A stretch of DNA of 55,663 bases, filler included, from Jimgerdemannia flammicorona (taxonomy: Eukaryota): the NCBI GenBank assembly GCA_003990765.1. It is 3 parts of 3 records of this genome, joined end to end, with 100 filler letters (N's around TTAATTAATTAA, not from the genome) between each part and the next. Parts side by side here need not be neighbours in the genome. Positions count along the whole stretch, not along the records: positions 1 to 18,490 come from RBNJ01002200.1; 2 more parts are not named here. One strand, written 5' to 3'. The notes below the pieces were generated by a model, which ran no database searches, had not been told where the DNA came from, and saw only the letters and a list, made by a program, of their open reading frames with translations. Shown here in pieces: positions 1-55,663 of the stretch (position 1 is its first letter; every line of letters begins with the position of its first letter). The position numbers and the translations under genes are program-made.

Positions 1-1038
1 TTTTTGGAAGGCCTTTACTCATTCTTGCCATCATTCTCTCACCCTCCCTCACTCTTCATTTCTTATAGCTCATCTTCTACACTGTCCCATGCTCTCTACT
101 CGAGGTGTGTAGTGCATATTCTCTGTGCTTTTTTTTATTTTTGAGAGGCCTTTACTATCGCTCATTCTCTCATTCTCTCACTCTTTATTTCTCACAACTT
201 GGCTTTTGCATGCCTTGCTGCCTGAAAAAGTTGCACCCTTCTGACATGCTTATTTTTGATATGTTATATTTATTCTTGATATCAGCTTCCTATGATAAAG
301 ATGCTTGCTACAAAGATACTCACTTGTCTGCATGGATAATTTGAAGACTGTTTGGAGGGTGTCCTCTGATCTGTGCTAAAAATGTCCTCTCTCTTTCTTG
401 AGGAGGACCTCTTGCAGTCTGTGTTTCTTATCCAGAAGGCCAGATGAGGCAGAAGGCCAATTGAGGGGGTATCCCATGATTTGTGCTAGTGATGTCCTTT
501 CTCTTTGGAGGAGGACCTCTTCCAGCTGGCTTTCCATATCTTTAGAGGACTCTGTATCTCAAGAAGATTGGAGGAGATCAATCAGAGAGGTGTTCTCTGA
601 TTTATGCTGGCTATGTCCTCTCTCCTTGGAGGAGGACCTCTTTCAGCTAGTCTCCAGTATCTTTTTGTAGTGGGTGAGCAGGCTGGCCAGCTGCTGTTAT
701 AGCCCTGTGCCAGCTAGAGATCACAGGCAGACAGTCTTGGCCATCTTGCCATGAATAGAGGCTGAGATGTCCTCTTGTTTTGGCCATGAACTGGACTCCT
801 GTATCCTTGTACATATTTTTATTCTGCTACTGACAATCCACTCTTCTATACTATACCAGTTTCCTCTGGAATATTTTTGTGAAATGGAGGAAGATTTTGA
901 CTCTGTTGACATTGACTCAGATGAATTGCTGACTGCTTCGAGATAGAAGTTGGAGGCCACCTTGTTGACACCAGCTATTCTTCTATCAAGTAGAGTTATC
1001 CCAGGACTTGATTTTGGAAAACCTTTTGAATGTGACAT
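1..1038 (-). pseudogene. Decayed ORF of unknown function (S/K/R/E-rich, KRSSSKERGH-like repeats), divergent from the dioxygenase, cargo of the TIR element
   Basis: ORF 721-1038 continues in frame through TGA/TAA stops that revert to CGA/CAA (…ETS*KRSSSKERGHSQHK…), with later frameshifts. Confidence 0.35.
383..650. repeat. Three imperfect ~35-bp direct repeats spaced 110-121 bp
   Basis: TGTCCTYTCTCYTT(G/CTT)GAGGAGGACCTCTT(G/C/T)CAG at about 383, 493 and 614. Confidence 0.8.
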
Positions 1039-1281
1039 TTTGAAAAAGTTTTTGGGCTCACTAACTTATGTAATTGATACAAAATGAGGAATTGATGCAC
1101 TTCAGGAGACATTTAGAAGTCCTTATCATGAGGGATTGCCTGAATTATAGCATTTTCATTTTTCTGAGAGTCCTCCTTTGATGGGTTTGAAGATATATAA
1201 TCAAATTTTTCAATATCTTCCTGCTATTTGAGTAAGTTGCTTAGAATTCTGAGTATTTTTTTTTTTTTTTTTTTTTAAGAA

Positions 1282-2505
1282 ATGAATCTCACCAAACTTA
1301 GATTACTAAAAAAATTATTTTGCTTTTTAGAAGACAAAGAAGGATTGACACAAAGTATAATTAGTAGATTTTTTGGATCAGCAATGACAATATTGGGAAG
1401 ATCAACAAAACCTCAAGGCCAAATTTATCCAGACTCAATTCCATATTCCAAGTCTTCATGATTTGGAAATATTGAAAATTCTGAGGCTTGATCTTCCAGC
1501 AGAGCAGACAACAATACTTTATATGCAGAATTTGGAGGAAGTTAGATGTCAGTATTCTGTCAAGTCTTCAGAAAAAGGATATCAAAATTGATTTCGAACC
1601 ATGATATTTTTCAAGTCTTCCACCTTATCAGCTGGTATCCTAAATTCGCATTGCAATTATATTATTCTAGATGCTGATATAGAGGAAGTTGTTCTAGTAG
1701 TTTGGAGAGGAATGTTGGAAGATCAAGCAAGCCAAGTTTTGACAGATGTTTGTGAGGAGGCTTTCAAAGTTCAGAAAGCTGGATTGTGTGGCAAAGCTTA
1801 AGTAGGGACTGGATCATACATATCAGCTGGCTACACTTTGATCTATGTTGGTAGAATGCATTGTCATATTGTACCTCTCAACAATTTTAAACCACAAATT
1901 GGACAAGATAAATAAGAGGAACACAAAATAGCTGTTATGGATATGGCTTTACTTCTCTTTAACACTTCTTATCAGATGTAGTAGCAAATTCCCCTACTTC
2001 ACTCAATTTTTGAACAATTCAATGCTCCTTATTGTCTATCTCCTGAAGAATTTTTGGCATCCTTAGCATCTTTGGCATCCTCAACTTCAGTGTCATAATT
2101 CTTAACTTTGCTACCAGTATCTACTTTAGCTTTAAAATTACCTGGAATTGATAGAGGTCAGATGAATCAGAGTCAATCTAGGATACATTTTAGGGACAAT
2201 ATACAAGTTCTCCTACTCACACTGATCAAGAGATGATATCTGTTTTACTCTGCATTGTCAAACATAAAGAACAATATACTTCAAAATCTGGAGGCTTGTT
2301 CTATAATCTGGCTTATGCCATTGGAGTTCTGCTAGAGTCAAATATGATGATGGTATTTCACTCAAATCAACCATATGGTTCAATAGTTATTGGAGATGAA
2401 GAAGTTCTAAATAGCTTATCAATGAGTGTTTGTCATAGAACTTTGAAAGCTGTGAGCCATTATAACAAATTTTTTGGAAATTTGAGAGAGCAAAAAAATC
2501 TATAG
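1282..2505 (+). pseudogene. TET/JBP-like 2-oxoglutarate Fe(II) dioxygenase, decayed (start approximate)
   Basis: Reading through C-to-T stops gives NYIILDADIEEVVLVVWRGML…VGTGSYISAGYT…(frameshift)…SI(W)DTF(W)GQYTSSPT-HTD-QEMISVLLCIV…SGGLFYNLAYAIGVLLESNMMMVFHSNQP-(Y)GS. HxD is at 2218-2226, followed by a GG-x-F strand, and the distal His codon CAT is mutated to TAT at 2374. Confidence 0.6.
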
Positions 2506-2690
2506 ATATTTTGAATATTTGGTTATTGTTTTTTATATTGTATCTTAGTTTTAGAATATTTGATGGAAGTTTTGCTTTTTTCTTAGAAGTTCCATGAATA
2601 TGAAGAGTTTTTTTACTTCAAAGGAATTGTTCTTTTTGGTGAACTTCTTAATTTGCACTGGCTGGCTCCTAATATAGTTTATTATATAAA

Positions 2691-2870
2691 GAATTCAGGT
2701 CAACCTGAATTCATCACATGATAAATTCAAACTGATCCAAATTCATCACATGATAAATTCAAACTGGTTTGAATTCATCATAGGACAAATTTGAACTAAT
2801 TCAAATTTATTATGAGATGAATTCAAACTAACTCAAATCAGTCATGTGGTTTGCAAATTTGAATCAGGTT
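2691..2870. repeat. Subterminal array of 32-bp palindromic units (4 copies, 2707-2834, plus flanking palindromes)
   Basis: Unit GAATTCATCACATGATAAATTC-AAACTGRTYY. Reverting CpG decay gives GAATTCGTCACGTGACGAATTC-GAACCGGTTC, two perfect palindromes. Confidence 0.8.
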
Positions 2871-2899
2871 CAAATTTCCCTAGCTCAATCAGAGCACTA

Positions 2900-5800
2900 C
2901 CAGCAAGAGGAAAGAAGGTACCTTGTCTGAGATAGAGCACAAGTCCAATGTTTCACTCTGGATAGTTGAGACACTATGCCACTGAATGTGACAATAAAAG
3001 AAGTGACCAAAGGGACTCAGAACTACTAAACTGATGGAATGATACTCAGTACAAGAAGACTGAAGCCCATCCTGTTGAAGTTTTCGAGGAAGCAAACAAT
3101 AGTAAAGACTACAGTGACCTAGACTTGTACCCTACCAAGATTACCATCTGAAAAACAGTCTACCCAGTAGAGAAGAGGAAGAGACCTATTGGAAGGCCAT
3201 CTAGGAATATCAGTAGAAGAATCATCCAAGAATAAGACAAAGAGCATGAGGAGGAGCAGATAGAAACACCTTCCCAAACTCCCTCACCATTTGTCTCCAA
3301 AACAAATGAGCTGCTACCAGAAGATGAAGAAATAGAACAAAAAGAATGGGAACCTGCTGCTTCAAAGCCCAAGAAGAAGTATACCCCAAAGACCATATCT
3401 AGAGATATCTACAATGAAGCCTGGTAGAAGATTCAAGAGGCCAAAATGGAAGTTCCCCTCCTGCAGTTCCTACAACTGACACCAGCTGGAGTTCAAAACA
3501 AACTGCTGAAAACCACCAGATCCAGTACTGGCCAAGTTCCAATTCCACAGTAAGAACCAGTTTCCATCTCTATTCAAGCAGCTGAAAGTTATGTCAGCAC
3601 CTATCTATATAGAGATATTGAAGGACAAAAGGTGAAAATCCTCATAGATACAGAAGCAGCTGTCTGTGTCATTGCCAAATGATTCCTGGACACCATCCAA
3701 TGGCCCATTGATGGACCATCCAACCTCAGCATCATAGTAGCAGATGGAGCCCGAACTCAACCCCTTGGAGAAGTATGAAATATCACCATTTCCCTGAGAC
3801 ACATTCTGTTTTCTATTTCCAAAGCTATTGTTACTGAAGCTGTAACCTATGACATGATCCATAGCACCAACTAGATGAAGGAAATGAATACAGTTGTTGA
3901 TATCCGCCAACAAGTACTCAAGTTTGACTACTGAGGCAAGAAGTATAGAGTTAAGGTGACTAGCTATGAGTAATCAAAGAAGAAGAAGAAGGTCACCATC
4001 CAAGAAGAATATACCAGTAGTGAAGAATCTACAATAGAAGAAGAGGAAGAATCTGAAGATGGAAATGATCCCAGACTCAACCCCCAAATTAACCTGGTGG
4101 ATGACAGACCAGAAGACAATGTGTGGGCCAAGAACACTATCTCTATCACCATAGGAGCCATTGTAGGAGAAATCAAAGGATGCCCCACCTGCCTCAAGAG
4201 ATACAAGTACCCCAAGTACTCTTCCAAAATCATTGGAACAAGGAATTCGCCTAGTACAGTCTGCTCTGAGTGTAGAAAGAAGAAGAAGAAATGCAGACAT
4301 ATTCCAGAAACACCTAAAACCAAAGCTGCAGAAGTGCAAGCAATTTGGGGACAAGAATCATCTAAGGATGAAGAAGTTCCTGACCAAGAATTTCCCAAAG
4401 GAGAAGCACCTGAAGAAGAAGAGGTTTCTGAACTCATTCCCTGGGATGACTCTCACTGGACACCATCAGAAGATAATGACCCTTGGAATAAGGAAGAAGA
4501 ATCCAGCACAATCACCATTATCTCCAAGAAAGAAACTCACCAAGAAAAGGCCTTTTGGTTAAGAAGATGTCTCCACCAAATGGTCCTCTACTCTCCCCAA
4601 AACTACTTCTATCAGTGCTATCTATTAGACCAACAGGAGAGACAGAGACCCCAGAGACCAGAATCCCTGAACACAGTTGCACAGTCAACTACCTTCAAAG
4701 AAGTTACCATCAAGCTGCAAAGCCAATTCAGAAGACAAGGCCTCTTCACCCAGACAGAAGTCTACCCCCTGTCTACTCTTCCACCAACTTATGACCAAGA
4801 TGGATACTGATTCCCAAGACAACAACAAATCAATAACTGGGAACATCATTTCTGAACAATGTGATATTGTAACCATAGAAGACACCCAGACTGCCAAGAT
4901 TGCAGACACCAGAAGATTCACCTCAGTCATGATGTTGCAATCCATATCTTGAAGAGAGGAGATGACAGAAGCCAGGAAAAAGGATTCTCAAGATCTATGA
5001 TTTAGGAGAAGATATCCTAGCTCTCATTAGACATACAACCTGCCAAGGATGGGTAGGAGATGCCACCAACTTCATGGAAGCCCTAGACCCTACAGGAAGA
5101 AGAGAAATCAACTATCTCCAAGACCCCTCTACTGGAGCCAGATGGCCACACCTCAACCTCAGAGCCTGGAGGCTCTCTGCTAGTGAAGCCTCAGCCCAAG
5201 GAAAGGCCAAACTTAGCAAGGATGTTGCCCAGTATGCCCTGCTACACCCCAAGGCCAAACTTCTGACCAAAGTACACCCAGAAGATATGGGATATGATCT
5301 CCACAGTCTGGAGGATGAATCTATCAAGCCTGGAAAAACATTCATGATCAGAACCAGGCTAGCCATACAGCCACCCCAGGGAGCTTATATCTAACTAATC
5401 TCAAGGTCTGGACTTGCCAGACAAGGAATAACTGTAGAAGGAGGAACCATTGACTCAGGATATATAGGCGAAATCAAGGTTATCCTACACAACAGAGTGC
5501 AGAATAGCACTGAATCATTAGAGGACAGAAGATTGCCCAAGCAGTCTTCATGAAGGTAAGGACCCTGCAATTACAAGAAGTGTCTGAACTGACTGAAGGA
5601 ATAAGACAAGCCAAAGGATTTGGAAGTTCAGATAAGAAGGAAGTATATCTCCTTTAAGTCAACTACCTCAAGAGGAATGTTTCCCAGCAAGTATACTGCC
5701 AACCAGTCAAACTACACAAGAACCTCATCCTGGAGCCTGGAGAACAAACCACCTTTGAAATCTTTGCACCACCCAACTCCAGAAACATTTTCTTTGAACC

Positions 5801-7878: not shown

Positions 7879-9897
7879 ATGGCAAACAACAAGCATTCTG
7901 GGGTACATACTGGGTAGGGCAGCCCTAGCATGTTTGACTGGCAGCAGGTGGGGAGAGGTCCTGGCCTGGGAGGTGGTATGAGAGGACTGTTGGCAGGAGG
8001 ACAAGGAGGAGGTGGAGGCAGCAGTAGCAGACAGGGGTCTGGGAGGGTGAGCTTCGCAGAGATGGTGAAGGGGAGGCAGCAGATGATAGGGCTGGAGGGT
8101 TGGCTGAGCAAAGGCAAGGAGATGGAGATGATGACAGTTCACAGGTGAGTAGTACTTGGGGGTGGGGGCAGTGGAGCTGGGGGAGTAGTGGCTGGGGGGA
8201 GTGTGATGGCTGATGGTGATAGGACTGCCAATCTGGAAAAAAATCCAGATGTGATGGCTGATGACATGGCTGAACAACTGAGGCTTAGAAGGCAGGGAGA
8301 TTTGGCAGATGGTGTGATAGGTCTAGCAGTGGCACTATTACTCAAGAAATTGATCTCGGTATTCACAGTGACATTGTGCTTCCAGGGTCTGGTGGTGATG
8401 GTGAAAATAGTGCTGGGGCTTATAGCTAAGCAGGTGGCTGGAGCAGCATCTGTGAAGTTCCTGAAAGAATTAGAGAGAGTAGAGGTGGGGTTTGAGGAGG
8501 CTGAGCCCCTGGAGGAAGCGCTGAAGGTTGGATTGATTGTTGGAGAGGTGTGTGTCCCAATGGTGCGCTGTCTGAAGTGAGACCCCAGGGTGGTCCAACT
8601 GCTGGTGAAAGGAGTGCCTATGGTAATGGCAGTGGAGATGAGAAGGAGAGTCGAGGAGGTCATGGTGGAGTATAATGAGGTAGTGGATATTGGGTTCAGG
8701 GTCTGGGAAGGGACCTCACTCAGGACTGGAGATATGGATGTGTGGATGGCAGAGAAAGAAGCTATAGGGAAGACAAGAGACTGGCCTTCAGTGATGGTCT
8801 GGGGGGCAATCTTGTGTAAGGTGACAAGGGTGAAGAGAAGTGAGGAGGATGAAGAAGACTTGCTGGCAGCACTGGAAGAGCTGAGTGGAGTGGTGGAGCA
8901 GCAGGCAAAGACTTGGAGGACTTTTGAGAAGTTGACACACTTGGAGGTAGTGGATGGGAAGAGGATCAGAGTGGACAAGGGGCAATGGGAAAAAGCTCAG
9001 GGCCATAAACATCAGAAAGAGTTACTGGCTAAGATGGAAAGTCGACTGCTGAAGGAGGCAGGTGGAATGGTGGAACCAGGGGGTGCCAAGGCAAGTGTCT
9101 GGGCCGGCAAGAAGGGTGGGAGTGCAGGGAAAGGAACAGAGGAGGACAGGAAAGCAGCTGGTGGCAACCTGTATACTGATGGTATGTTTGAGGTCTGGGA
9201 GGAGGACTGGGAGGGATTGCCTACCCCTACTCCTCTCATCAGACAAGGCCCAGCTTACTGGAGTAGGGCAGGAGAGGATGTGCCAATAAAGGGGGCCCAG
9301 CAAGTGCAATTTGGTATGTCTGAGGTAGAAAATGGAGGACAGGTGGTGGTGATTAGAGAGGAGGAATTGGTGGATGTCCTGGAGGAGTGGGATGAGGCTG
9401 TGAGTACTGGGGCTGATACCATGATGTTGGATGGTGGAAGACTGGTGACCCCAGGAGGGAAGGAGATAGGAAATCTACTTTGGATGTGCAGGATGATGAA
9501 TAACCTGGTGGCTGAAGAGCTTGGAGAGGTGGACTTGAGGGTAATGAGTGATGAGCATTGGGCATGGATATTGCAGGGAGATGGTGTGGAGTTGGCATTG
9601 AAGGCAGAGATCCTTGCAGTGTATCTGAAGGAAGAAGGGTATGAGGTGGATAAGGAGCAGGAGGCTGAACTTGCAGGGGTTGCTGGGGAGAGGGCCAAGT
9701 ACTGTTGGGCCAAGCAACATGGGCTGTAGCTCTGGCAGGAGGCCTGCCTGGAGTACCAAGAGGAGTTTGAGGAGAAGGCAGATGGAGAGATGAATGAGCT
9801 GTTGGCTGGATTGGAGGCTCAGAGGGCTGAAGAGGAGACAGTGACTGCAGAATATAATCTGGACATGGCACAGGAAGAGATGAACTTGGAACAGTAG
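7879..9897 (+). pseudogene. LINE ORF1 (673 codons, Gly-rich N-terminus, RRM-like core, acidic coiled-coil)
   Basis: Single frame from ATG 7879 to TAG 9897 with 4 internal C-to-T-type stops. Collinear with ORF1 of copy 2. Confidence 0.75.
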
Positions 9898-9929
9898 AGA
9901 TGGCCTGGATAAACTCACCATACTTAAAT

Positions 9930-12720
9930 ATGAATAGTACAACCAATTTTTTTTCACTGAACATAAATGGGTTATGGGGTGCTTCTCAACAAAGGAATAT
10001 TTTTACTTGGCTGAAGGGATTGGAGGCCAATCTCTTCCTCTTGCAGAATGTCAGGTGTGAAGATGATGAGGATAAACTGGAATGGATGAAGGAATTGGGA
10101 GGTGAGGTGGGTTGGAAGGGCAAGGTTGGGATTCTGGTATAGAAAGGCAGAGGGGAGATAAGGAATATGTAGAGCTAGGGGAATAGACTGGTCTAGGGTG
10201 AGTGGATACATACTGGATGGGAGCCAATTACAGTGGGCTCTTGTTACTGCCCTACTGTATAGGGTGAGCATGTGGACTGGGTGAAGGGTCTTCAAGAGAG
10301 TGGGATACTAGCAGAGGCTGGGGTGGATGTACTGGGTGGAGACTTTAATATGGTTCGAGAGGTACTGATAGACAGAACAGATGGAGGACAAGGAGTTGAG
10401 GGTCAGAGTAGAGGGCTGGCAGCGTGGGAGGAAGTGGAAAGGCTGAGTGCTCTGGTGAATGTGGGTAGGAAGTACTAGGGGGATAGGAGGGTATACATAC
10501 ATTGGGCAGGAGGCTTGGGGATGAGAATTGATTGGATTCTGATGGCCAGCTGCTGGGGTTTGGATGTTTGGAGGTCACTGGAGGTGGAATGGTGTCCTTG
10601 ATCGGATCATTAGGAGATTTTCGGACAGGGTCAGTTTGGGGGGAGTGGGGATGGGCCTGGATATTGGCACCTCAATTCCTCTTTGTTAGATGATAGGGTC
10701 TGGTGAGATGGGTGGGCTGCAGACATTCAGAGAGACAGAAAGGTGTCCCAGTTGGTGTTTGATGGATGATGATGAAGAAGATGGCCAAGGCATACTGGAG
10801 TGAGGCTGGCAAGGAGACTGGGAGATAGAGGAGGTGAAAGGTGAGATGGGCTTCTAGTAGACTGTCTAGGCTCTTGGGAGATTGGGTGAGACTGGTGACA
10901 TTGGAGGGGGAGGAGATTTGGAGGTCTATAAGAATGAAAAAGGAGGTTGCTGAACTACAACAGGTGTTGCAGGAGGAGGAAGAAGCAAGGGTACAGAGTT
11001 TGGCAGCAAGGCTATGTTGGCAGGGTTTGGAAGAAGGGAAGAGGCCCTTTAAGTTTCTCACAAGGGCCCTTCAGGTGAGAAGGGTGCAACAATGGTGGGA
11101 GGGAGTGTTCAACTCTGATGGTGTCCTGGTCCATAGTATTCAAGATATTCTCGGATCTGGAAAGACACACTGGAGTAGATTGTGGAGTGAGGAGGAGGGT
11201 GGGGTAGATGCCAATGCTATTGGCCATACATTAGAAGGTTGGCAACCCCCACAAGTAGATGGGATGGGTGACTTGATGTTGCCAGTCTAAGAGGAGGAGA
11301 TCTGCCAGGTCCATGCTATGACAATACCAGGTATGGCACCTGGAGAAGATGGTTTGCCCTGGGACTTCTGGAAGAAGATGGTTGAGATCCCAGGAGTACT
11401 GGGTGAGATGACAGCATTGTGTGATCTTATTTTACAGACAGGGAGATGGGTGGGGGAGTAGGATCTGGGGTTGGTGATGTTGCTCTATAAGAACAAAGGA
11501 AGGTGAGAGGACTGGAAGAACTGGAGGCCAATTATGCTCTTAGATATGGACAGAAAGTTGGTTACTAATGTGGTGGTTGCAAGGCTACAAAAGGTAGCAC
11601 AGCAAATCTTGGGCATTGAGCAGAGGGGCTTTGTAGAGGGACGGCTCATTAGGGATGGCATGACCTGGATATATGGAGTTATTGAAGGGGCATGAGCTTG
11701 TGGATTGGATGGGCACCTGGTCTTCTTGGACCAGGAGAAGGCTTACAACTGGGTGAGGTGATTCTGGCTGGAAAAAGTTTTAGATAAGGCTGGGGTTCCA
11801 CACCAGTTCTGGTCAACAATGGTCAGTCTAATGGAAGGGAGTAGGGCAGTGCTCATGTGTAATGGACATCAAGGGGTAGCATTTCCCCTAGGTAGGGGGG
11901 TGCCCCAGGGGGACCCATTGTCCCCTATTTTGTATACCCTTTCCCTGGAACTACTACTGGATAGAATCAGGCAGAAGATAGTGGGGCTCTCTATCTTTGG
12001 TATTGGGTGGAAGGTAGGGGCCTTTGCAGATGACATGGTGGTTGGACTGGGATCAATTGCTGATGTTGAGGAGCTTAAGGAGACAGTGGAGTGGTATGAG
12101 GAGAACTCTGGGGCGAGACTTAATTGGCATAAGTGTGAAACAATGGTGTTAGGCAATGGTCTGGTGGGCAGGGAGAATATTGGAACAATCATCCCTACTG
12201 GTGAGGCAGTGTGGTACTTTGGTATCTATCTATCAGTATATGGGTCAGTAGTACCCAAGCTTTGGTGTGTGCAGCAGGTTGAAATTTGGGGGGAGGCCCT
12301 GCAGAGTTGGGGGGGCTGTCAATTGTCCCTGGCAGGGCATGTTATAATTTTGAACACCTACTGACTGCCAAAGTTGTGGTATCTGGTATATCATCTGGAC
12401 TTCCCATCCTGGGTGGTGAAGAGGCTGATGAAGCTAGCCAAGGAATGGATCTGGGCTGGAAGGAGGAGTCAGATAAACTGGGAGATCTTGTCCTTACTAG
12501 TGGCGAGTGGTGGATTGAGACTGATTGACTTTCTGAAGAGGCTATACTACTTGAGAGTTTGGTGGTTGAAGAGAGCCATGGAATTGAGAGGGAGTGGTTG
12601 GGTTCCCCTATTGCAGAAGGTTTGGAAGAGGCAGTTCTCACTGAGAGGCTCAACTGGTGATCTCCTATCCTTGGTTGGACTTCAGAACACTAATCAATTG
12701 TGATATAAAGGCTTCTGGTG
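9930..12720 (+). pseudogene. LINE ORF2: AP endonuclease + reverse transcriptase
   Basis: FSLNINGL, GGDFN, RIDW, SDH, APGEDG, NWRPIMLL, DQEKAYN, GVPQGDPLSP, FADD, LNWHKC. Confidence 0.92.
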
Positions 12721-12810
12721 ATCAAGGACACCTTTCACCAGTAACATTCAGGTGATACAAGACTCAGACAATACTTTTCACTGCGTTTTTGGTATACAGT
12801 GACTATCAAC

Positions 12811-14727
12811 ATAGATGGCAATGATCGATCTGGTGAGCATACTGGCCAGGGGGGTGCAGGTGCCTTTGGCTGGCAGCAGGTGGAGAGGAGGGGAGATGGT
12901 TTGGGGATGCCGGGGGCCACGATGGCTGGCTGAGGCCCTGGTGGTGGAGGGAGGGGTGGGCTGAGGCAGAGAGGTGGGGAGAGGTCAACCTTCACTGACA
13001 AGGTCAGATTGAGAAAGATGGCCTCAGGCCTGGATGGTTGGCTGGGCCTGGGGAAGGCGTTGATGGCTGCTGCTGGGGGACAGGTAGGTATGCCCAGGGG
13101 AGTCTTAGGGGGCAGGGGAGGAGCTGGTGTAGGGGAGGGAGATGTGCCTGTTGATGAGGCTGTGACTGGGGATCTGGCAAAAAATCCAGATGTGACAGTG
13201 GTTGGTAATTCAGGACTGAGAGGGGGCACAAGGCCCAGGGACCTGGCAGATGGAGTGATGGGCATGGTGTCGGCCCCATTACTCAAAAAGTCGCGGTCAG
13301 AATTCACAGTCATGATGTGCTTCTGGGGCTTGGTGGTGACGGCAAGGATGATTCTGGGGCTGGTGGCACAGGAGGCTAAGGGTGCTGTGTCAGTGAAGTT
13401 TTTGAGGGGGAAGGAAGGAGTTGAGGTGGGGTTTGAGGAGGAAGATACCTTGTTGGCAGCCATGGAGAAGGGGGTGATGGTTGGTGGGGTGGTGGTCTCT
13501 ATGGCCAGGTACATGTGCTGGGACCCCCGAGTGGTGCAGTTGATGGTGTTGGATCTCCCTACCATGTCAAAGGAGAGGACCAGGGAGTTGGTTGTGGAGG
13601 TGATCAAGGAGTATAGCGAGATTGTGGATGTTGGGTTCAAGGTCTGGGAGGGTACAGAGCTTAGGACAGGTGATGTCGATGTCAGGGTGAGGCTGGCTGG
13701 GAAGGAGAATACAGAGAAGTCAAGGGACTGGCCAGCGGTGCTGAGGTGGGGACTGGTGGAGTGTAAGGTCACAAGGGTGAAGGGGACCCTGGAGGAGGAG
13801 GAGGACCTGTTGGAGGCCCTGGAGGATCTGGAAGGGGCGGTGGCAAGGAGGAGATTGGCCTGGGAGGAGTTTGAGGCCAGGACGGTGGTGGGGGAGGTTG
13901 AGGGGAAGAGGGTCCAGATGGAAAAGGGGGCCTGGGAGAAGTTGCAGAGAAGGCGAATCCAGAAGGAGCTGCTGGCGATGTTGGGTGAGGGTGGGGCTGG
14001 TGGTAGTTCAGGAGAGGGAGTTGCAGGGTTGAGGGAGAGCACCTGGGCTGAAGGGGGAGGAATGGCATAGAGTGCAGCTCAGGTTAGAGTGGGGGAGGAA
14101 AGAGTCGGCAATTTGGAGGCAAACACTGAAATGGGCGAAGGTGTGCACCCTACATATAGTGTCCCAGGTAGAGCTGAGGGGGAGGAGGAGCTGCTGGATG
14201 TGCCGGATGAGGAGTGAGATGAGTCTATAAGGAGGAGTGCTCTGGTGGACCCCAAGGTGGATGGGGGATGAATCACTCAGGGTGCGGCGGAGGTAGTGGA
14301 TGAGGAGAAGTGGATGTGGAAGACCCTGGAAGGGGTTGCAGTGGAAGAGCTGGGGGGTGAGGATTTTAGGGTGATGGAAGAGAAGCACTGGGAGGAGATC
14401 CTTAGGGGGGAGGAGGTGCCGAGGAAGATGAGGAATGAGATCCTGGCTGTCCTCCTGGAGTCAGTTGAGTATCAAGTGGATGATCAGCGAGAGGAGGAAC
14501 TTAGGAAAGTAGCAAGTAAAAGGGCACTTTTTTTGTGAACCACGAGGAAGGGACTGGAGAAGTGGTGCACAGTCTGCTTGGACTACCGGTCAGATATGGA
14601 GGAGGTGGACAGGGTGGAATGCCAGGAAATCTTGAGGGCACTGGATGCTCAGGATATTGCAGAGAGTGACTTGGAAGCTGAATGGCACTTGGATCTGGCT
14701 GGGGATGGGATGAGCATGGAATTCTAG
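12811..14727 (+). pseudogene. LINE ORF1 (639 codons; start ATA presumed from ATG)
   Basis: DLAKNPDV…DLADGV…VKFL…VWEGTELRTGDVDV…CKVTRVK, homologous to 7879-9897. Confidence 0.75.
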
Positions 14728-14757
14728 GCTGGGTCTCTTTTACAACATTTTTTCAAT

Positions 14758-17700
14758 ATGAATAGTACAACCAAGATATTCTCGCTGAATGTTAATGGGT
14801 TATGGGGGGCAGCTAGGAGGAAGTATATATTTGGATGGCTTAAGGGACTGGATGCGGATCTCTTCTTATTACAGGATGTTCATTATAAGGCAGATGTGGA
14901 CTTACAGAATTGGACTAAGGAATGGGGGGGCATGGTAGTATGGAGGGGGAAAGTGTGTATTCTCATTTGGAAAGGGATGGGGTACATTGAGGACATTGGA
15001 CATTGGGGGGTCTAGGGTGGTGTGGGGAAGGTGGAAAAGGCCTGGATGGGGCTCATTGATGGTTGGGTCTTGTTACTGCCCAGCTGAGAGAGGGGAGAGA
15101 GTGGATTGGATTCACAGATTGAAGGAGGCTGGTGTACTGGGAGAAGTTGGGCTGGACTGTATGGGGGGTGACTTCAACATAGTCCAGGATAAGGAGATAG
15201 ATGGAATGGATAGTGGGAGAGGCATGTAAGGCGAAAGTGGTGGATTGGGTGACTGGTTAGAGACGGAGAGGTTGTGTTCTTTAGTGGACTCGGGAAGACA
15301 TTTTTGGGCTGAGCGGCAGGTATATATCCACTGGGTGGCGGGGCTGGGCTCTAGGATTGACTGGGTTCTGACTGCAGAGTATTGGGGCATGGATGTCTGG
15401 TCAGCACTGGAAGTAGTATGGTGTCTATGGTCTAATCACTGGGGGCTGTGTAGAGGGGGGAGGTTTGGGGGTAATGAGGATGGACCTGGACATTGGCGGC
15501 TAAATTCTTCATTATTGGAGGATAAGGTATTGTGGGAGGGTTGGAAGATAGAGGTGGTGGGAAATATTGGCAGGTGGTGGGAACAAGGCCTTGGGATTGA
15601 GGACCGCTAGAGACAATTGAAGGCGAATGCTCAGGGGTATTGGAGGGAGGCTGGGAAAGGAAAGTGTGCCCAGTGAAGGTGGAGGGAGCTGTGGGCCTCA
15701 TGGCGCCTGGCTGCACTCATGGAAAGATGGGCAGGGGTGCTGTAGGATGGGGATGTGTCTGATTGGCATATTGTTCGAATTCAGCAAGAGATAGTAGAGC
15801 TTAAAGGGGTGTTGCGCTGTGAGAAGGAGGTGCAAATGCAAGGAATGGCAGCCAGACTATGGTGGCAGGGGCTCAAGGAGGGGGAGAGACCTACTAGGTT
15901 TTTGTCATGATTGTTATGAGCACAATGAACGAAACAGCGGTGGGAGGGAGTTCTGGATGAGGAGGGCGAGCTGGTGGTGGGGACTCTGGCAATTCTGGGC
16001 CTATTGAGAACCCGGTGGAGAAATCTATAGAGTGAAGAAGAGGGTGGAATGGATGCTTTGGATGTTGACAGACAGCTGGGAGACTGGCACCTGGACTCTA
16101 CAATGGGACTTGGGGCATTGGGGGACCCAGTGAGTGGTGGGGAAATTTGTAGAGTTGTGGCCTTGACGAGTAAGGGGACAGCCCCAGGAGAGGATGGACT
16201 TCCCTGGGATTTTTGGCAGAAGATGGCTGGGGTGGGCGAGGTGCTTGAGGAAATGACTGTTATGTGTGATGGGGTTATTTGGTCTGGTGCTTAGATTGGG
16301 GGATAGCATTTGGGGCTATTTTCCTTACTCTACAAGAACAAGGGAAGGCGAGAAGATTGGAGGAACTGGCGGCCGATCATGCTTCTTGACATGGACTGCA
16401 AACTGGTGACAAAGATCTTGGTGATTAGGCTATAAGGAATCACTCAGCAGGTGCTGGGTGTGGAGCAGCGTGGGTTTGTCAGTGGTCAGCTGATTCGAGA
16501 TGGGACAGCTTGGGTTCATGGAGTAATTGAAGGTGCCTGGGCAACAGGGGTAGATGGCAGATTGGTGTTTCTGGACCAGGAGAAGGCCTATGATCGAGTG
16601 CAGAGGATATGGCTGGAGGGAGTGCTGAAATGGATTGGCATTCCCCCAGAGTTTCGAGGATCATTGATCAGTCTCCTGAAGGACAGTCAGGCAGCACTGG
16701 TCATTAATGGCCACAGAGGGGAGACCTTTTCCCTGGGGTGCAGGGTGCCGCAAGGGGACCCATTGTCACCCATTTTGTATGCCCTTTTGCTGGAGCCCCT
16801 ACTGGACAGAATTCGGTAGCAGATTGGGGGTTTGGACATTCTCAAGGTTAATTGGAAGGTGGGGGCCTTTGCTGATGATATGGTGGTCAGGCTGGGCTCT
16901 TTGGAGGATGTGGGGGAGTTACAGAGGTCAGTGGAATGGTATGAGAGGGGTTCCGGTGCTAAACTAAACTGGCACAAATGCAAGACACTGGTGCTGGGAG
17001 CTGGCATTGTTGGTGGTGATGTCATTGGGACAGTGGTACTGGCTGGAGAACCAGTGCATTACTTGGGGATCTACTTTTCAGTATTCGGTTCTCTTCTTCC
17101 CCATGCTTGGTGGGACCATCAGCTTCTGGAGTGGGGAAATGTTCTGTTGCATTGGGGAGGCTGGCACATGTCGCTAGCCAGAAGGGTGATAGTGCTGAAT
17201 GTGTATTGGATGTCTAAGCTGTGGTATGTTGGATATCATTTGGATTTCCCAACCTGGGTGGTCAAGGGGCTGTTGAAGATGGCGAGGTCATGGATCTGGG
17301 GAGGACAGCACAGCCAGGTTGGTTGGGAGGTGCTCACACTGCCCTTGGAAAGAGGTGGGCTGGGCTTAGTGGACTTTACTAAGCGACTCCTTTGTTTGCA
17401 AGCTTGGTGGTTGCAAAGGGTGAGTGAGCTTCGGGGTCAGGAGTGGGTCCCACTCATGCAGAGGTTGTGGGAGGTTCAGTACTCCCCACATGGTGACTCC
17501 GGTGACCTGCTCGCGATGGTGGCCATAGAAGGGAGCAGGAGGATGCAGTTTATGGGCTTCTGGTATGGGGTGGTAGATGGTGCCAAGAAAATTGGTCTTC
17601 ACTGGCGAGGTGATAAAGCTGTGGAGGATTGGGGACTGCAGATGTGGTGGTGGGACAGGCTTCTTCTGGGTGGTGTTCCAGTGGAGAACTTTTAGCTTGG

Positions 17701-18420
17701 TGAAGGTTTGGAGTATCTGCAAGGCCTAGGTAGAGACCTGTGGCCCAAAGCCTGGCAGAGGGTTGGAATTGGTGAAGAGTGGGATTGGCATGGACTCTGG
17801 CCTTGGAGCAAAAGGGTGAGGCAGTGGCTGCCCCCCAAGTTCTGGGTGGTGTGGTGGATGTCCTGCAGCGGAATGTGATGTTGAACTATTGGTCAGGGCA
17901 CTTGGTGGATAGTGGGGCATTCAAGTGTGAGGATTGTTTCAATGTTGGTCAGGAGGGAGGAGTAGTACAAATGCCTGAACATTGGCTTGGTGAGTGTGAG
18001 GTTTTGGAGGAGTTTTGGAAATGTATTATGGATAGGTTAGGGCTAGGTACCTTGGAGGGAGAGAGTGGGGGAAGATGGAGAAAGCTCTGCCAGCGACTGG
18101 TGGGTGGGGTGGGGGATGAATGGCTGACCCTTGGTTGGACTTTGGCTATGTGGGTTAGGTTGGCTGGGCATTGGGTTCATGTCTTTGAGGAAGGGCATAG
18201 GGTAGGGGTCCAGGACAAGGTGGCGTGTTGGGAATAGTTGCTATTGGACATTTTGAATAGCTGGTGGCAGGGTTGGGGGCTAGGGGAGGGACACTGCAGG
18301 GGCTTGGTGCAGTGTATATTCCGGAAGAGTGGGGGAAGGATTCAGGTAGTGGGTAATTGGGTGGTGCTCAGGCAGGGAGAGATTGAGGGGGGTGGGTTGG
18401 GTCCACGGGGCATTGGCTGA
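14758..18420 (+). pseudogene. LINE ORF2: APE + RT + C-terminal CCHC knuckle
   Basis: FSLNVNGL, GGDFN, DQEKAYDRV, PQGDPLSP, FADD, GGLGL, CEDC-x14-H-x4-C at about 17926-17997. Confidence 0.92.
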
Positions 18421-18490: not shown

Positions 18491-18590
18491 NNNNNNNNNN
18501 NNNNNNNNNNNNNNNNNNNNNNNNNNNNNNNNNNTTAATTAATTAANNNNNNNNNNNNNNNNNNNNNNNNNNNNNNNNNNNNNNNNNNNN
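18491..18590. other. Assembly gap with artificial six-frame-stop linker
   Basis: 44 N + TTAATTAATTAA + 44 N. Confidence 0.99.
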
Positions 18591-18824: not shown

Positions 18825-18963
18825 ATAGATAAATGTACTGTTTCTGGTATCTCTGGCTAATTATACAGGTTGGCATAGTAAAGCTATCTTGATTGCTTAG
18901 TATACTAGATATAGTATATGACTAATTTATAATTTTGGCAGTACAATTCTATTACTTATTACA
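18825..18963 (-). repeat. Family A 3' LTR (first 139 bp)
   Basis: Matches 36511-36649. Begins TGTAATAAG on the minus strand after AGTGGGGGCTGA. Confidence 0.88.
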
Positions 18964-19516: not shown

Positions 19517-20850
19517 GGTAAGAGAGGTATATCTTGAGATAGTTGATGTATACTGGTGTTCTGAGAGTTCATCTATCTATATTTCTTAAATAGATACTAG
19601 TTCCTCTGATATTGTGTACAAGATAAGATTCTTCTCATTTGGGCTCCAGTTTGGTAGCAAAATTTATCTCAATCATACTTCTTCAGATTAGTACTTGATC
19701 TCCAATATTGATCTTCTGATCCTTCTACTTCTAGTTATAGTACTTCTTTTATCTTTCTTAGACTTTGATAATCTGAGCTTGGGCTTAATTATATAACTAT
19801 TCTGCCTTCTTAAGGAGGTCTCCAAGATTCTCATGGTCAGCAGTTCTGGTTTCCTTGACAAATATTATTTTGAATAGCTTTTGTTTAGTAGAGATAGCAG
19901 GAGTATTCCAAATTTTCCATAGAATCTCAGGTAAGCAGAGGTTCCAGTTAGTAGGATTGACTCAGACAAGTTCTTTCTTGATAGTCTGATTCATTCTTTC
20001 TGTTATACCATTGGTCTGTAGGTAGTATAATGTGGTCTATTTGAGGTAGATCTTATGAATTTAGGTATAACTTATAATTATATTATTGATGAATTCTGTG
20101 CCTCAGTTAGAGATAAGTTCTTCTGGATGTCTATATCTGAGTATAAGTTCATGAAGAAGGTCTACAATGGTCAGGGTATCTGTGATTTCCATTGGGAAAG
20201 CCTTGGACCACTTGGTCAGATATTCTACAAATATAAGAATATATATATTTCTTCTTAGTATAACTGATAGGAGTCTAATTATATCTACTCTCCATCTCTG
20301 AAAGATGTTATCTGATAATATGATTAGTTATAGTAGTGCTTGGTAGTTCTTCCTTCCTTAGTACTTTTGGCAGGTATTATATTTCTTAAGTATGTCTCAG
20401 ACTTGAGTTCTGAGATTGGGCTAATATTGGTATATTGTTTATAGCTTTTCTTCTATATTTGCCTGTCCTTGATGAGCTTTCTGATATTCTTTTTGGATGT
20501 GTCTTGATGGTTAGAGGAGCTTTCTTTAGAGTGTAATTCCTCAGTACATCCTTCTTCTGGTTTATTGGGGTTGGTGGAAAAGTATATCAACATTGTTGTG
20601 AGCTTTCTCTGTCTTGTAAATAATGGTGATTTTGTAATCCTGAAGAATAAGGATCCAATAGACTAGAATTCTAGTAGATTTCTTATAGTTGAATAGTGTA
20701 ACAGTGACTCCAGAATGATGACATCAGCACAGGAGACAGCCTTTCCTTGCAAGCTATCAGATTGGAGCACAAGAAGATCATATGATATATGAGATGAGTA
20801 ATGATGACCAACTGTGAGTCACTGTGACCACAGTATAGTATCTTGAGGAA

Positions 20851-20858
20851 TATAAAAG
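20851..20858 (+). promoter_or_regulatory. TATA-like box upstream of the LTR-internal ORF
   Basis: TATAAAAG 83 nt before ATG 20934, conserved in all three B LTR copies. Confidence 0.4.
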
Positions 20859-20933
20859 AAGGATTAAGAAACTGCAGTAGCAGCAATCAACAAGACCAAT
20901 CCCAAAATAGCCCAAAGACTTATTACAAATAAA

Positions 20934-21797
20934 ATGTCTACTGCTCACCAAACCTCAAGGTCAAGGAACCACCAAGGCACCTCAGTCGAAGAAAGGATGT
21001 TCCAAGACATCAGAAGAGCTATGAGAACCTGCTCAAGAAGGACTCCTAGTATCAACCTGGGTACTGGTGACTCTTATCATTATATCCTCTACCACCATGA
21101 AATAGAAACAAGGATCACTATTGCTACCGAATGCCTCCAAATATGGCAGGAGTACGAAATAGGAAACCTTCTCCACCAGGAGTTTCTATAAGCCAGTACT
21201 CAAGAGCTACAAGATGTCATCCCCATAGATATATATGAAATGAGGATAGCTAAGAAGATCCATCAGATCTTTAAGCATATACCATAGTTGATCCCCAACT
21301 TGAAGTATGTTAGAGTCTTAGATTTTAGAGACCTGTCATCCTACCATATCAATGCACTAGAAGCCAGAGTGGCTACAGAAGCCCAGTCCACTATCACCCT
21401 CAATAGTGATGAAGTAGAAGACTTCTGGCACCCCATCCTCCAAGACAACCCAGACCAATTCCTGTAAGGATTGATCTCAGTATTCCAAGGCCCAAGCATC
21501 CAGGTTAGACCTCCCCAAGACCCCATATTTGTTTCTTATTTTGTAGAAGAGAACTTCATAGATTGGAGAGCCCCTGATTTCCCTGCCGCTGAATGTGATG
21601 ACATCATTGGTGATGATGTCATCCTGCATGACTTTGATATATGTGAGACATATGACTTGCATGAGATACCTGAAGCATGTAAAGTACATGAAACATGTGA
21701 CCTACATGATGAATTCATGGACCTCATCTCCTTTGAAGATATCCTGACCTCTGATGATGAGGATGAAGCCCCCATAGTCTTGAACATTCTGCTCTAA
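20934..21797 (+). pseudogene. Family B LTR-internal accessory ORF (287 aa)
   Basis: 864 nt in one frame with 3 internal stops of CAA/TGG-decay type. ORF-track pieces 20934-21191 and 21471-21797 are in the same frame. Confidence 0.75.
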
Positions 21798-21820
21798 GTC
21801 CTTTATTATACTGGATAATG

Positions 21821-21930
21821 CCAGCACCAGTATTCTGAGGTGATGCAGAATTGTTCCAGCATTGGTATTTGATATAACACTAAATAATACTAGTACTGAT
21901 ATTTTGATGTAATATCAAATTATACCAGCA
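21821..21930 (+). repeat. Three tandem ~35-bp repeats in B U3 (also about 29088-29198)
   Basis: CCAGCACCAGTATTCTGAGGTGATGCAGAATTGTT / CCAGCATTGGTATTTGATATAACACTAAATAATA / CTAGTACTGATATTTTGATGTAATATCAAATTATA. Confidence 0.7.
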
Positions 21931-22035
21931 TCCTGAACCTATACAACTATTAGTACCAACCCTGAAACTTAGTAGTTTTAGTTATTGGAATTTATATTTA
22001 GCTTTATATCTTAGCAATCATTAAATTATATTTTG

Positions 22036-22068
22036 TATAAATACCCTTCTTATTTCCTCTGAAATAAA
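22036..22068 (+). promoter_or_regulatory. Probable main LTR TATA box and poly(A) signal of family B
   Basis: TATAAATA 22036-22043 (same TATAAATACCC context as family C at 43225-43232) and AATAAA 22063-22068. Confidence 0.5.
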
Positions 22069-22304
22069 GTTAGTCTTCTCAGTACAATATATACACTTCC
22101 TTACAAGTAATCTAAGAGATAACAAGACAGTTAAAGATAAGAAGTTTGAGGACTATAGGACCTTGAGAAGGCACTCCAATAAGAACTTGCTTATAACAAA
22201 CTTGAGTTAGTATAAGAGATATACCTTGAAGAGAATCTGACATATTTGAAGGACTCAGCAACCACCACATGACAACTTAGTGCCCATTGGCTGGTGATTC
22301 AAGA

Positions 22305-27963: not shown

Positions 27964-29542
27964 TGTAACAGTGACCCCAGAATGATGACATCAGCACAGA
28001 AGACAGCCTTTCCTTACAAGCCACCAGATTGGAGCACAAGAAGATCATATGGCATGTGAGATGAGCAATGATGACCAACTGTAAGTCACTGTGACCATAG
28101 TATGGTATCTTGAGGAATATAAAAGAAGGATTAAGGAACTGCAGTAATAGCAACCAACAAGACCAATCCCAAAATAGCCCAAAGACTTATCACAAACAAA
28201 ATATCTGCTGCTTGCTAAATCTCAAGGTCAAGGAACCACCAAGGTATCTCAGTTGAAGAAAGGATGTTCCAAGACATCAGAAGAGCTATGAGGACCCACT
28301 CAAGAAGGACTCCTAGTGTCAACCTGGGTACTAGTGACCCTTATCATTATATCCTCTATCACCATGAAATGGAAACAAGGATTACTATTGCTACTGAATG
28401 CCTCCAAATGTAGCAGGAGTATGAAATAAGAAACCTCCTCTACCAGGAGTTTCTATAAGCCAGTACTCAAGAGCTATAAGATGTCATCTCTATGGATATA
28501 CATGAAATGAGGATAGCTAAGAAGATCCATCAGATCTTCAGGCAGGCACCATGGTTGATTCCCAACTTAGAGTATGTTAGAGTCTTAGATTTCAGAGATC
28601 TATCATCCTGCCATATCAATATACTAGAAGCCAGGGTGGCTACAGAAGCCCAGTCTACTATCACTCTCAATAGTGATGAAGTAGAAGACTTGTGGCACCC
28701 CATCCTTCAAGACAACCCAGACCAATTTCTGCAAGGATTGATCTCAGTATTCCAAGGCCCAAGTATCCAGGTTAGATCTCTCCAAGACTCCATATTTGTT
28801 TCTTATTTTGTGGAAGAGAACCTCATAGATTGGAGAGCCCCTGATTTCCCTGCCGCTGAATGTGATGACATCATCAGCAATGATATCATCCCACATGACT
28901 TTGACATATGCGAGATGTGCAACTTGTATGAGATACCTGAAGCATGCAAAGTATGTGAAATGTGTGACCTACATGATGAATTCACAGACCTCATCTTCTT
29001 CAAAGATATCCTGACCTCTAATGATGAGAATGAAGCCCCCATGGTCTTGAACATTCTGCTCTAAGTCTCTTATTATACTGGATAATGTCAGCACTAGTAT
29101 TCTGAGGTGACACAGAATTGTTCCAGTACTGATATTTTGATGTAATATTAAATAATACCAGCACTGGTATTTTGATGTGATACCAAATTATACCAGCATC
29201 CTGAATCTGTACAACCATCAGTACTAACCCTGGAACTTAGTAGTTTTAGTTATTGGAATTTATATTTAGCTTTATATCTTAGCAACCATTAAATTATATT
29301 TTATATAAATATCTCACTTATTTCCTCTGAAATAAAGTCAGTCTTCTTAGTACAATATATACACTTTCTTACAAGTAATCTAAGAGATAACAAGATAGTT
29401 AAAGATTAGAAGTTTGAGGACTATAAGACCTTGGGAAGGTACTCTAACAAGAACTTACTTATAACAAACTTGAGTTAGTCTAAGAGATACACCTTGAAGA
29501 GAATCTGATATATTTGAAGGACTCAGCAACTACTATGTGACA
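27964..29542 (+). repeat. Family B 3' LTR (1579 bp)
   Basis: TGTAACAG…GTGACA, direct repeat of 20697-22274. Confidence 0.95.
28201..29064 (+). pseudogene. Second copy of the family B LTR-internal ORF
   Basis: 864 nt, ATG mutated to ATA. The 190-aa C-terminal part is still open (28492-29064). Confidence 0.75.
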
Positions 29543-37077: not shown

Positions 37078-37177
37078 NNNNNNNNNNNNNNNNNNNNNNN
37101 NNNNNNNNNNNNNNNNNNNNNTTAATTAATTAANNNNNNNNNNNNNNNNNNNNNNNNNNNNNNNNNNNNNNNNNNNN
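37078..37177. other. Assembly gap with artificial six-frame-stop linker
   Basis: 44 N + TTAATTAATTAA + 44 N. Confidence 0.99.
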
Positions 37178-39451: not shown

Positions 39452-39862
39452 GAATACTGGACTTTGTCAAGTTAAGGCAAACTACCAAGGCCCCAACCAA
39501 AGGAAGTCAAAAAGCAGCTAGATATGACCTATATGCAGCTGAAGAAGCTACAGTTTCTAATCAAGAAGTTAAGCAAGTCTATACAGAAATCAGTATCCAA
39601 ATCCCTGAAAGACATATTGGAAGGATATGCTGTCACAGTAGCCTAGCATTAAAAGGACTCTCAGTAGAAGGAGGAGTTATTGACAAGGATTATATAGGCG
39701 AAATTATTGTCCTCATCCAAAACCATAGTTGGACACCCTTCAAAATCTCCATTGGTTTCTGCATTATACAGATCCTATTCAATAAAATCAAGTCAACCCT
39801 GATAGTCAAGGAAGTTCCTGAACTACTGCCCACCATCTGAGGATCCAAAGAATTTGGCTCAT
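39452..39862 (+). pseudogene. dut: dUTPase domain of family C, between Gag CCHC and protease
   Basis: AA(R)YDLYAAE, (H)SSLALKGLSVEGGVIDKDYIGEI, (*)GSKEFGSS. In frame with the CCHC knuckle and upstream of DSGAS. Confidence 0.92.
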
Positions 39863-55528: not shown

Positions 55529-55663
55529 TAGTGCTCCGAACGAGTCAATCCGGATGGGATTCGGATGGATTCGAATTGGATTCGAATCAGATTCGAATCG
55601 GATTCGAATCCCATCCGGATGGATTCGAATCGGATTCGAATCGGATTCGAATCGGATTCGAAT
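55529..55663. mobile_element. Left terminus of a recent TIR DNA transposon with 11-bp GGATTCGAATC subterminal tandem repeats
   Basis: LTR homology stops at 55528. TAGTGCTCCGAACGAG follows, then palindromic GATTCGAATC repeats with CpG largely intact. Confidence 0.72.

Follow-up and report, generated by a model that had tools for sequence, protein, structure and literature searches.

A pseudogene for a probable TET/JBP-like dioxygenase carried by an old, inactivated transposon of Jimgerdemannia flammicorona

What kind of element once occupied the first 2,899 positions of the stretch of Jimgerdemannia flammicorona DNA analysed here, and what did its ruined open reading frame (ORF) encode? The stretch, which we call the window, is 55,663 nucleotides long and joins three parts of assembly GCA_003990765.1. 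Our analysis suggests that positions 1-2899 are probably the 3' part of an old, inactivated cut-and-paste transposon with terminal inverted repeats (TIRs) that carried a TET/JBP-like gene, and that a young copy of the same family begins at 55529. The 5' part of the element, and with it the transposase, presumably lie beyond the start of the window. The argument starts from the element's ends, which are given here with position, strand and the basis of each assignment.

2882-2899, minus strand: right TIR of the decayed copy, reverse complement TAGTGCTCTGATTGAGCT; from an exact 11-mer and a paralogue at 33957.
55529-55546, plus strand: left TIR, TAGTGCTCCGAACGAGTC, of the second, undecayed copy, which runs off the window; from the break in homology to a paralogue.
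2690-2881, no strand assigned: decayed subterminal array in which ATTCGAA-type units have become ATTCAAA or ATTTGAA, with no CpG left; from motif density and alignment A3.
55547-55663, plus strand: subterminal array of the fresh copy, rich in CpG and made of GGATTCGAATC units at 11-bp spacing; repeat family D6.

A first-pass annotation of this DNA had matched the terminus at 2899 with the one at 55529, and this match holds. Across the 55,663 bases there are two exact occurrences of the 11-mer TAGTGCTCYGA, at 2889-2899 (minus strand) and at 55529-55539 (plus strand), and the decayed and fresh termini are identical at 12 of 18 bases. Taken alone the 11-mer is weak evidence, since a search that tolerates one mismatch finds five matches where 1.96 are expected. 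Inward of each exact copy, however, comes an array of one shared subterminal motif: ATTYRAA reaches 118.5 per kb in 55529-55663 and 47.6 per kb in 2690-2899, compared with 0.7 per kb in the 52 kb or so that separate them (2900-55528). The ends had also been described as rich in CpG, which is what we find in the fresh copy, where 55529-55663 contains 17 CpG in 135 bp (observed/expected 2.39) and 16 occurrences of ATTCGAAT with both strands counted; the CpG count in 2506-2899 of the decayed copy is zero.

Both insertions sit in copies of Gypsy-type retrotransposons for which insertion-free paralogues exist elsewhere in the window, so that filled and empty sites can be compared directly. At the left junction, 55528/55529, homology to the paralogue ends exactly at 55528. 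At the right junction, about 2899/2900, paralogue homology stops at 2896-2899, and the exact position is uncertain within a few bases, since CAGAAACTA in the empty paralogue stands against CAGAGCACTA in the element. With TIRs, subterminal repeats and insertion versus empty site all present, the element is a TIR cut-and-paste DNA transposon. We also observed a likeness between each of the two insertion sites and the terminus of the element itself. Upstream of the terminus at 55529, at a distance of 10 bp (within 55513-55528), stands TAGTGCT, which is present too in the empty paralogue at 43674-43690, and the comparison of the right end (2888-2899) with the empty paralogue at 33957-33970 shows a similar likeness. 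With two sites only, this may reflect either target preference or chance.

Inside the decayed copy lies the gene. Its parts are listed below, where P0003 denotes an intact relative of 374 amino acids that is 47-58% identical to the window copy.

330-665, plus strand: three tandem copies of a unit of ~110-120 bp, upstream of the gene; repeat families D11 and D12.
886-1231, plus strand: putative first exon, starting MEEDFDS and containing three in-frame stops; from translation.
1232-1282, plus strand: putative short intron of the form GT...poly-T...AG, inferred from sequence.
1361-2194, plus strand: N-terminal two thirds of the candidate TET/JBP-like pseudogene, in the frame of base 803; from tblastn with P0003.
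2164-2505, plus strand: C-terminal core of the same pseudogene, in the frame of base 802; from tblastn with P0003.

In tblastn, residues 5-256 of P0003 map to 1361-2194 with 46.8% identity (E 1.9e-77) and residues 265-371 to 2164-2484 with 57.9% identity (E 2.8e-38). Since the two segments lie in different frames, one frameshift must separate them, near 2164-2194. There are at least eight in-frame stops, six in 1403-2200 and two internal ones in 2167-2505. The frame of base 802 reads ...SSPTHTDQEM...SGGLFYNLAYAIGVLLESNMMMVFHSNQPYGS... as far as a stop codon at 2503-2505, with HTD encoded at 2218-2226 and GGLFYNLAYAIGVLL beginning at 2290, its GG at 2290-2295. In the stretch VFHSNQPYGS a Tyr codon (2374-2376) stands in place of the distal His that intact relatives keep, and the RGK motif conserved among these relatives is CGK here. 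The ORF at 1361-2505 is therefore a pseudogene, and its stop codon lies 394 bp before the element's end at 2899. In all of this the first-pass annotation was accurate: it had reported a decayed ORF with HTD, a GG stretch and VFHSNQP(H>Y)GS at these very places, and had placed the end of the ORF about 380 bp inside the TIR. The H>Y change falls on the distal metal ligand.

Relatives of the encoded protein are few. P0003 matches in protein searches at E 3.8e-62 and 5.9e-34, and the other protein relatives are P0007 (259 amino acids) and the fragments P0004, P0005, P0006 and P0008; only P0003 and P0007 hold full-length domain sequences. A phmmer search with the N-terminal part against 1.84 billion representatives returned four proteins at E<=0.001, and word-index searches kept 1 of 66, 2 of 7051 and 2 of 8000 candidates, the last of these, a profile search, bringing nothing further. 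The cargo-protein family is thus very small in public data, with 4-6 relatives among ~15 billion predicted proteins. When metagenomes were scanned with the two-sequence alignment A2, 66 stretches came up and two of them were confirmed, the contigs L001 and L002 (tblastn E 7e-69 and 4e-64). Both contigs are AT-rich, and in both the TET-like gene is split by short introns of fungal type. They are near-identical copies, of which L001 has an open gene and L002 an internal stop (at 1882/1883).

It is L001 that shows how gene and terminus belong together. Along this contig the TET-like gene (748-1956) is followed by a second intron-containing gene (~2370-3250, plus strand) and then by a 140-bp array of GATTYGA, whose density is 68.5 per kb in the array as against 1.7 per kb in the remaining contig. 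The array runs into ...TTGACTCGTTGGAAGCTCA, the reverse complement of which shares AACGAGTCAA and most of the flanking bases with the window terminus TAGTGCTCCGAACGAGTCAA; bases 9-20 of the terminus (CGAACGAGTCAA) are nearly identical in L001. The first-pass annotation had linked the ORF to the TIR, and the linkage recurs here, with the gene, its orientation relative to the terminus, a related terminus and the GATTYGA repeats all kept. That gene and terminus occur together in L001, although the window and L001 proteins are only ~48% identical and the compositions are unlike (CpG observed/expected 1.21 in L001 and 0.09 in the window), implies that they have travelled together for a long time. 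Because L001 carries the TET-like gene beside a related terminus, the gene is transposon cargo. One could suppose instead that the ORF is a host pseudogene that merely adjoins a transposon end, and the window, where only one end of the element is present, would allow this. We consider it extremely improbable, however, since a much more AT-rich and CpG-replete source keeps the gene upstream of a related terminus with repeats, since L001 and L002 are near-identical with a stop in one of them, as expected for a multicopy element, and since the window contains no recognisable host genes, its 114 ORFs of at least 85 amino acids giving retroelement domains only.

Several observations on the gene's surroundings are added here. 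The second gene of L001 has no Pfam match, and its exon at 2661-2945 has no meaningful match in the PDB; in the window copy only the 394 bp noted above lie between gene and terminus, where L001 carries this second gene. The tandem units at 330-665 are possibly a promoter or internal repeats of the element. In L002 an analogous direct repeat, ~175 bp from start to start, lies upstream of the TET-like gene within 1-250, and the upstream repeats of window and L002 are not themselves alike in sequence. A by-eye likeness to the first exon of L001 weakly suggests the putative first exon at 886-1231; tblastx reported no match between the two, and the short introns of the L001 gene lie at positions other than that of the putative intron at 1232-1282. 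Stretches with the TIR pattern GCTYCSAACGAGTCAA, at least 122 of them in prokaryote genome contigs and 16 in viral contigs, were treated as chance matches: tblastn of P0003 and P0007 against 138 of these loci gave nothing better than E 1.5, and none of the loci has a subterminal repeat density like that of L001.

What, then, did the cargo gene encode? We think it quite likely that the protein belongs with the TET/JBP enzymes, as a very divergent predicted dioxygenase of the Fe(II)/2-oxoglutarate (2OG) type. This is the best available reading at the level of leads plus motifs, and it draws on language-model neighbours, on an HxD...GG...H pattern and on a by-eye alignment of sequence blocks to the PE-type proteins. 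The pattern is well kept. The four relatives P0003, P0007, L001 and L002, at ~47% pairwise identity, all keep HxD (HVD in each of them, HTD in the window), a GG-x-F-Y strand ~24 residues further on and a distal H-G-S/T; P0003, P0007 and L001 cover the whole core without a stop, and the L002 row carries one. The 2-His-1-carboxylate triad is thus present in these four relatives, the window copy having HTD and the Tyr, and the ligand spacing, from H283 to H335 in P0003, is like that of a double-stranded beta-helix (DSBH). The N-terminal half of the family contains an invariant R-G-K. According to the legend of Figure 7 of Kojima 2025 (PMC12730594), the triad of HxD/E and distal His comprises the sole residues conserved across all TET/JBP types. 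Against rows of Table S1 of the same paper, five blocks can be aligned in order by eye: NYI..D..T.EIV; R...G..SAG; T-H-x-D/E followed after ~24 residues by GG-x-F-F/Y..YG; H-G-T/S; and M-S-I/V. From GG to the distal His, 10 of 33 ungapped positions are identical by eye to one Pezizomycete PE-type row.

The language-model neighbours come from the Protein Atlas. For P0003 the best named cluster is from Basidiomycota and carries PF20515 (2OG-FeII_Oxy_6; score 0.96, 209 of 256 features), with a PF12851 cluster at rank 11. For P0007, considering named clusters only, recognition is 2506 and the 30 matches divide into 8 with PF20515 and 22 with PF12851 (Tet_JBP); its top three clusters, labelled 'Tet-like 2OG-Fe(II) oxygenase' (PF20515), share 170-191 features.

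A number of results weigh against the interpretation as a whole, and it is convenient to consider them together. Protein Atlas matches are leads rather than alignments, and the recognition of P0003, 2142, is under the 2300 mark. Pfam at E<=10 gave no family for the window pieces P0001 and P0002, for P0003 or for the two domain-holding exons of L001, apart from an irrelevant MFP2b at E 0.16; nothing matched the PF12851 or PF20515 profiles over the curated cut-off, and the PDB yielded no sequence (phmmer) or profile match at E<=10. Structure prediction was of no help, since AlphaFold2 with alignments of 8 and 13 rows returned unusable models (mean predicted local distance difference test, pLDDT, 41.2 and 41.1), and Foldseek with the first model found no PDB match at E<=0.001; below this cut-off PHD2 at rank 8 and NgTET1 at ranks 25 and 48 appear with E ~1 and carry no weight. 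The block likeness to PE-type rows is unscored. As in TET2 and AlkB, a 2OG-binding Arg (R-x-S) is expected ~10-17 residues after the distal His; the family alignment shows no invariant Arg after this His, and an S/T-x-S at +15 to +17 instead. The enzyme activity is inferred only. On the side of the transposon, no DNA transposase (BED, DDE or hAT-dimerisation domain) was found in the 114 window ORFs, and with a single end of each copy inside the window no target-site duplication (TSD) is seen. The first-pass annotation had itself observed that the window lacks a transposase and that the Arg is not evident, and we agree on both points. Of its TET/JBP assignment, the conserved HxD...GG...H and the PF20515/PF12851 neighbours speak for what was proposed, whereas Pfam and PDB searches by sequence came back empty and the models were too poor to give a fold.

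Could the ORF then encode an accessory protein of the transposon that differs in both fold and function, with the HxD...GG...H pattern and the language-model neighbours arising by coincidence? The failure of every family and structure search by sequence, models too low in confidence to give a fold and the absence of the canonical 2OG-binding Arg are all consistent with this, and by the Protein Atlas's own note about one third of shuffled proteins also draw ten matches of the same clan. On the other hand, P0003 and P0007 lead independently to clusters with PF20515 and PF12851, and the 30 named matches of P0007 are without exception of this kind, at a recognition of 2506; three metal ligands are kept at DSBH-like spacing across relatives of ~47% identity; and the blocks resemble those of published PE-type proteins in their order. 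We therefore regard a different fold as improbable. Moreover, PE-type proteins reach CMD1 only at an HHpred E of 1.4 and were recognised by structure (PMC12730594), and since these proteins are themselves outside the reach of standard profiles, failure in Pfam is to be expected for a relative of this kind. If the protein is indeed TET/JBP-like, the lack of the canonical Arg may mean that it uses a co-substrate other than 2OG, as CMD1 does, or makes a product other than 5-hydroxymethylcytosine.

To which superfamily does the transposon belong? The first-pass annotation called its terminus hAT-like. YARNG termini typify hAT elements, and Ac-like members of the superfamily typically have short TIRs and CpG in their subterminal repeats; the window terminus, TAGTG, fits YARNG, and to this extent the description stands. 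The related terminus of L001, which reads TGATGAGC or TGAGC, falls outside YARNG. A motif of five degenerate bases is moreover expected in about 1 of 64 random pentamers. Pfam on the eight L001/L002 ORFs gave no transposase domain, so that BED, DDE and hAT-dimerisation domains are absent from these as well as from the window ORFs. A TSD of 8 bp (7 bp for hAT7) marks the superfamily, and with one end per copy none is seen. Membership of hAT, for example as a relative of the TET-carrying hAT7 elements, has in its favour that TET-positive hAT7 families occur in six Puccinia species (PMC12730594), and against it that the hAT7-1_PGr consensus in the supplement of that paper starts CAACGG..., unlike the element's TIR. 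The start of IS3EU in the same supplement is also unlike it. As the support for hAT is limited to the terminal pentamer, we rate hAT as possible but unlikely. The ends might also recall CACTA elements, since the element has TAGTG at its left end and CACTA at its right end, with CATCA at the right end of L001. This polarity, however, is reversed with respect to 5'-CA...TG-3' termini such as 5'-CAC(TA)...(TA)GTG-3', and a CACTA/EnSpm, Plavaka or Kyakuja reading was rejected.

The contrast between the two copies in the window bears on what the gene might do for its carrier. CpG observed/expected is 0.09 for the whole window and 0.05 in 1-2899. We compared five pairs of repeats within the window (20697-22167 with 27964-29435, 42745-44850 with 51330-53177, 38407-40243 with 48517-50353, 40762-42604 with 46156-47998, and 3591-4975 with 31876-33260), and 953 of their 1034 differences are transitions. 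The commonest dinucleotide changes are CA<>TA (212) and TG<>TA (185), with 84 CA<>TG double decays of CpG, which indicates that the repeat copies are under strong C>T pressure beyond CpG alone. We considered classical repeat-induced point mutation (RIP) as the process; by the usual index thresholds the values are not RIP-like, (CpA+TpG)/(ApC+GpT) being 1.43 and TpA/ApT 0.83, even though CA<>TA is the commonest class of difference. In the old copy every subterminal CpG is now TpG or CpA, and its gene has stops, R>C in the invariant RGK and H>Y at a metal ligand, while the CpG repeats of the fresh copy are intact. The damage to the decayed copy appears to consist of C>T transitions of the same kind that erased its subterminal CpGs.

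How could such an element profit from a TET/JBP-like enzyme? In active copies the predicted enzyme would oxidise 5-methylcytosine on the element's own DNA, and this oxidation would counter both methylation-based silencing and C>T hypermutation. The CpG-containing subterminal repeats, likely to be binding sites of the transposase, would thereby stay usable. Once the element was silenced or the enzyme lost, methylation-driven transitions would destroy repeats and gene alike. We know of no experimental proof of such self-protection for any transposon-borne PU- or PE-type enzyme. Iyer and colleagues reportedly described TET/JBP genes in Kyakuja-Dileera-Zisupton (KDZ) and Plavaka elements in 2014 and proposed a role against methylation. 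The first-pass annotation suggested the same kind of role for this element, and the idea is not new, since a transposon-borne TET that counters methylation of its own element has already been proposed in print, hAT7 of Puccinia included (PMC12730594).

The setting of the two copies deserves a few remarks. The window is a nest of Gypsy-type elements, and the only Pfam families in its ORFs are RVT_1, RT_RNaseH, rve, Integrase_H2C2 and dUTPase/DCD, together with one weak RdRP_1 overlap. A dUTPase domain lies directly upstream of the reverse transcriptase (RT) in Gypsy-type elements at 24486-25037 (Pfam E 2.8e-28) and at 39409-39837 (8e-26), and the repeat D13 (5423-5493) groups with these dUTPase-carrying elements; a Gypsy arrangement with dUTPase before RT is known from the basidiomycetes Postia and Phanerochaete and from Tuber (PMC2864245). 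A plant host, as the load of retrotransposons might suggest, was rejected on account of this arrangement, of the fungal type of the short introns in the relatives and of the fungal origin of the nearest named clusters. The introns, the fungal Protein Atlas neighbours and the likeness to the PE type point to a fungus whose repeats undergo strong methylation-linked C>T mutation. The block at ~7900-18300 differs in composition from the remaining window, with a G+C content of 50-54% and a strong excess of G over C on the plus strand (GC skew 0.38-0.52); it contains RVT_1 fragments at 11762-12361, 16436-16816 and 16820-17692 and no domains of the long-terminal-repeat (LTR) type, and looks like one or two non-LTR-type retroelements. 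Finally, runs of 44 N occur as two pairs whose members are 12 bases apart (18491-18534 with 18547-18590, and 37078-37121 with 37134-37177), each pair near a copy of the 135-nt repeat D10 (18825-18959 and 36511-36645).

How much of this is new? DNA transposons that contain TET/JBP genes, hAT elements among them, have been published before, and the window copy is itself a dead fragment. Novelty is limited to a divergent, sparsely sampled TET-like subfamily, PE-like with HxD and without Arg-x-Ser, and to a TIR family with TTCGAA subterminal repeats that was not found in the searched part of the supplement of PMC12730594, where two 8-mers of the TIR TAGTGCTCCGAACGAGTC have no match in the 187,118 characters covered. 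One might go further and propose that the protein represents a fourth type of transposon-borne TET/JBP-like oxygenase, so far undescribed, and that its carrier is a likewise undescribed TIR lineage, which has palindromic TTCGAA (CpG) units as its subterminal repeats and occurs in two or more unrelated hosts; we think this doubtful. Transposons that bring along a TET/JBP enzyme offer a natural example of mobile DNA set against silencing by DNA methylation, and the window offers something like a before-and-after picture of it, a young terminus with CpG in every subterminal repeat and an old copy that has lost both its CpGs and its enzyme gene. More generally, very divergent TET-like genes that Pfam does not detect accompany TIR elements beyond the families catalogued to date, which bears on how far this strategy has spread. 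The picture that Iyer and colleagues are said to have given of transposon-borne TET/JBP genes is unchanged by this. So is the overall picture drawn by Kojima 2025 (PMC12730594).

It remains to place the element among published systems. Fungal TET/JBP carriers comprise Dileera, hAT7, Harbinger, IS3EU, EnSpm, ESTA, Helitron, Kyakuja, Zisupton and Plavaka (PMC12730594). With KDZ and Plavaka elements our case shares the expansion of TET/JBP genes tied to DNA transposons; the termini of Kyakuja, the CMCT lineages and PlavakaB, however, are 5'-CA..TG-3' or 5'-CATCA..TGATG-3', while those of the element are 5'-TAGTG...CACTA-3', of opposite polarity (PMC12730594). The PU-type hAT7 of Puccinia is likewise a TIR DNA transposon that carries a TET/JBP gene, again in a genome of fungal type that is rich in repeats and hypermutated at CpG. 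Its defining features are the transposase and a TSD of 7 bp, whereas the element here is known from single ends; the terminus of hAT7-1_PGr differs from that of the element, and the PU-type sequence in the supplement of PMC12730594 is by eye less like the cargo family than the PE type is. AG-type enzymes, near CcTET, are recognisable by sequence, unlike the cargo family, which Pfam does not see. CMD1 of Chlamydomonas reinhardtii is a TET homologue for which vitamin C takes the place of 2OG and, according to PMC12730594, is the nearest solved structure to the PE- and PU-type proteins. The cargo family resembles it as a divergent TET/JBP relative, and has no obvious C-terminal 2OG-binding Arg; CMD1, though, is a host gene, and the cargo family has no sequence match to any PDB chain. 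The PE type, which travels on Helitron, IS3EU, Zisupton, EnSpm and Plavaka elements in Pezizomycetes and Agaricales (PMC12730594), differs in its hallmark HxE, where the cargo family keeps HxD, and in an Arg-Leu after M-S-I/V in the PE rows compared, which is not conserved in the cargo family. Beyond the blocks that align by eye, PE-type proteins and the cargo family have in common that both are transposon-borne and that both have diverged too far for standard TET/JBP profiles.

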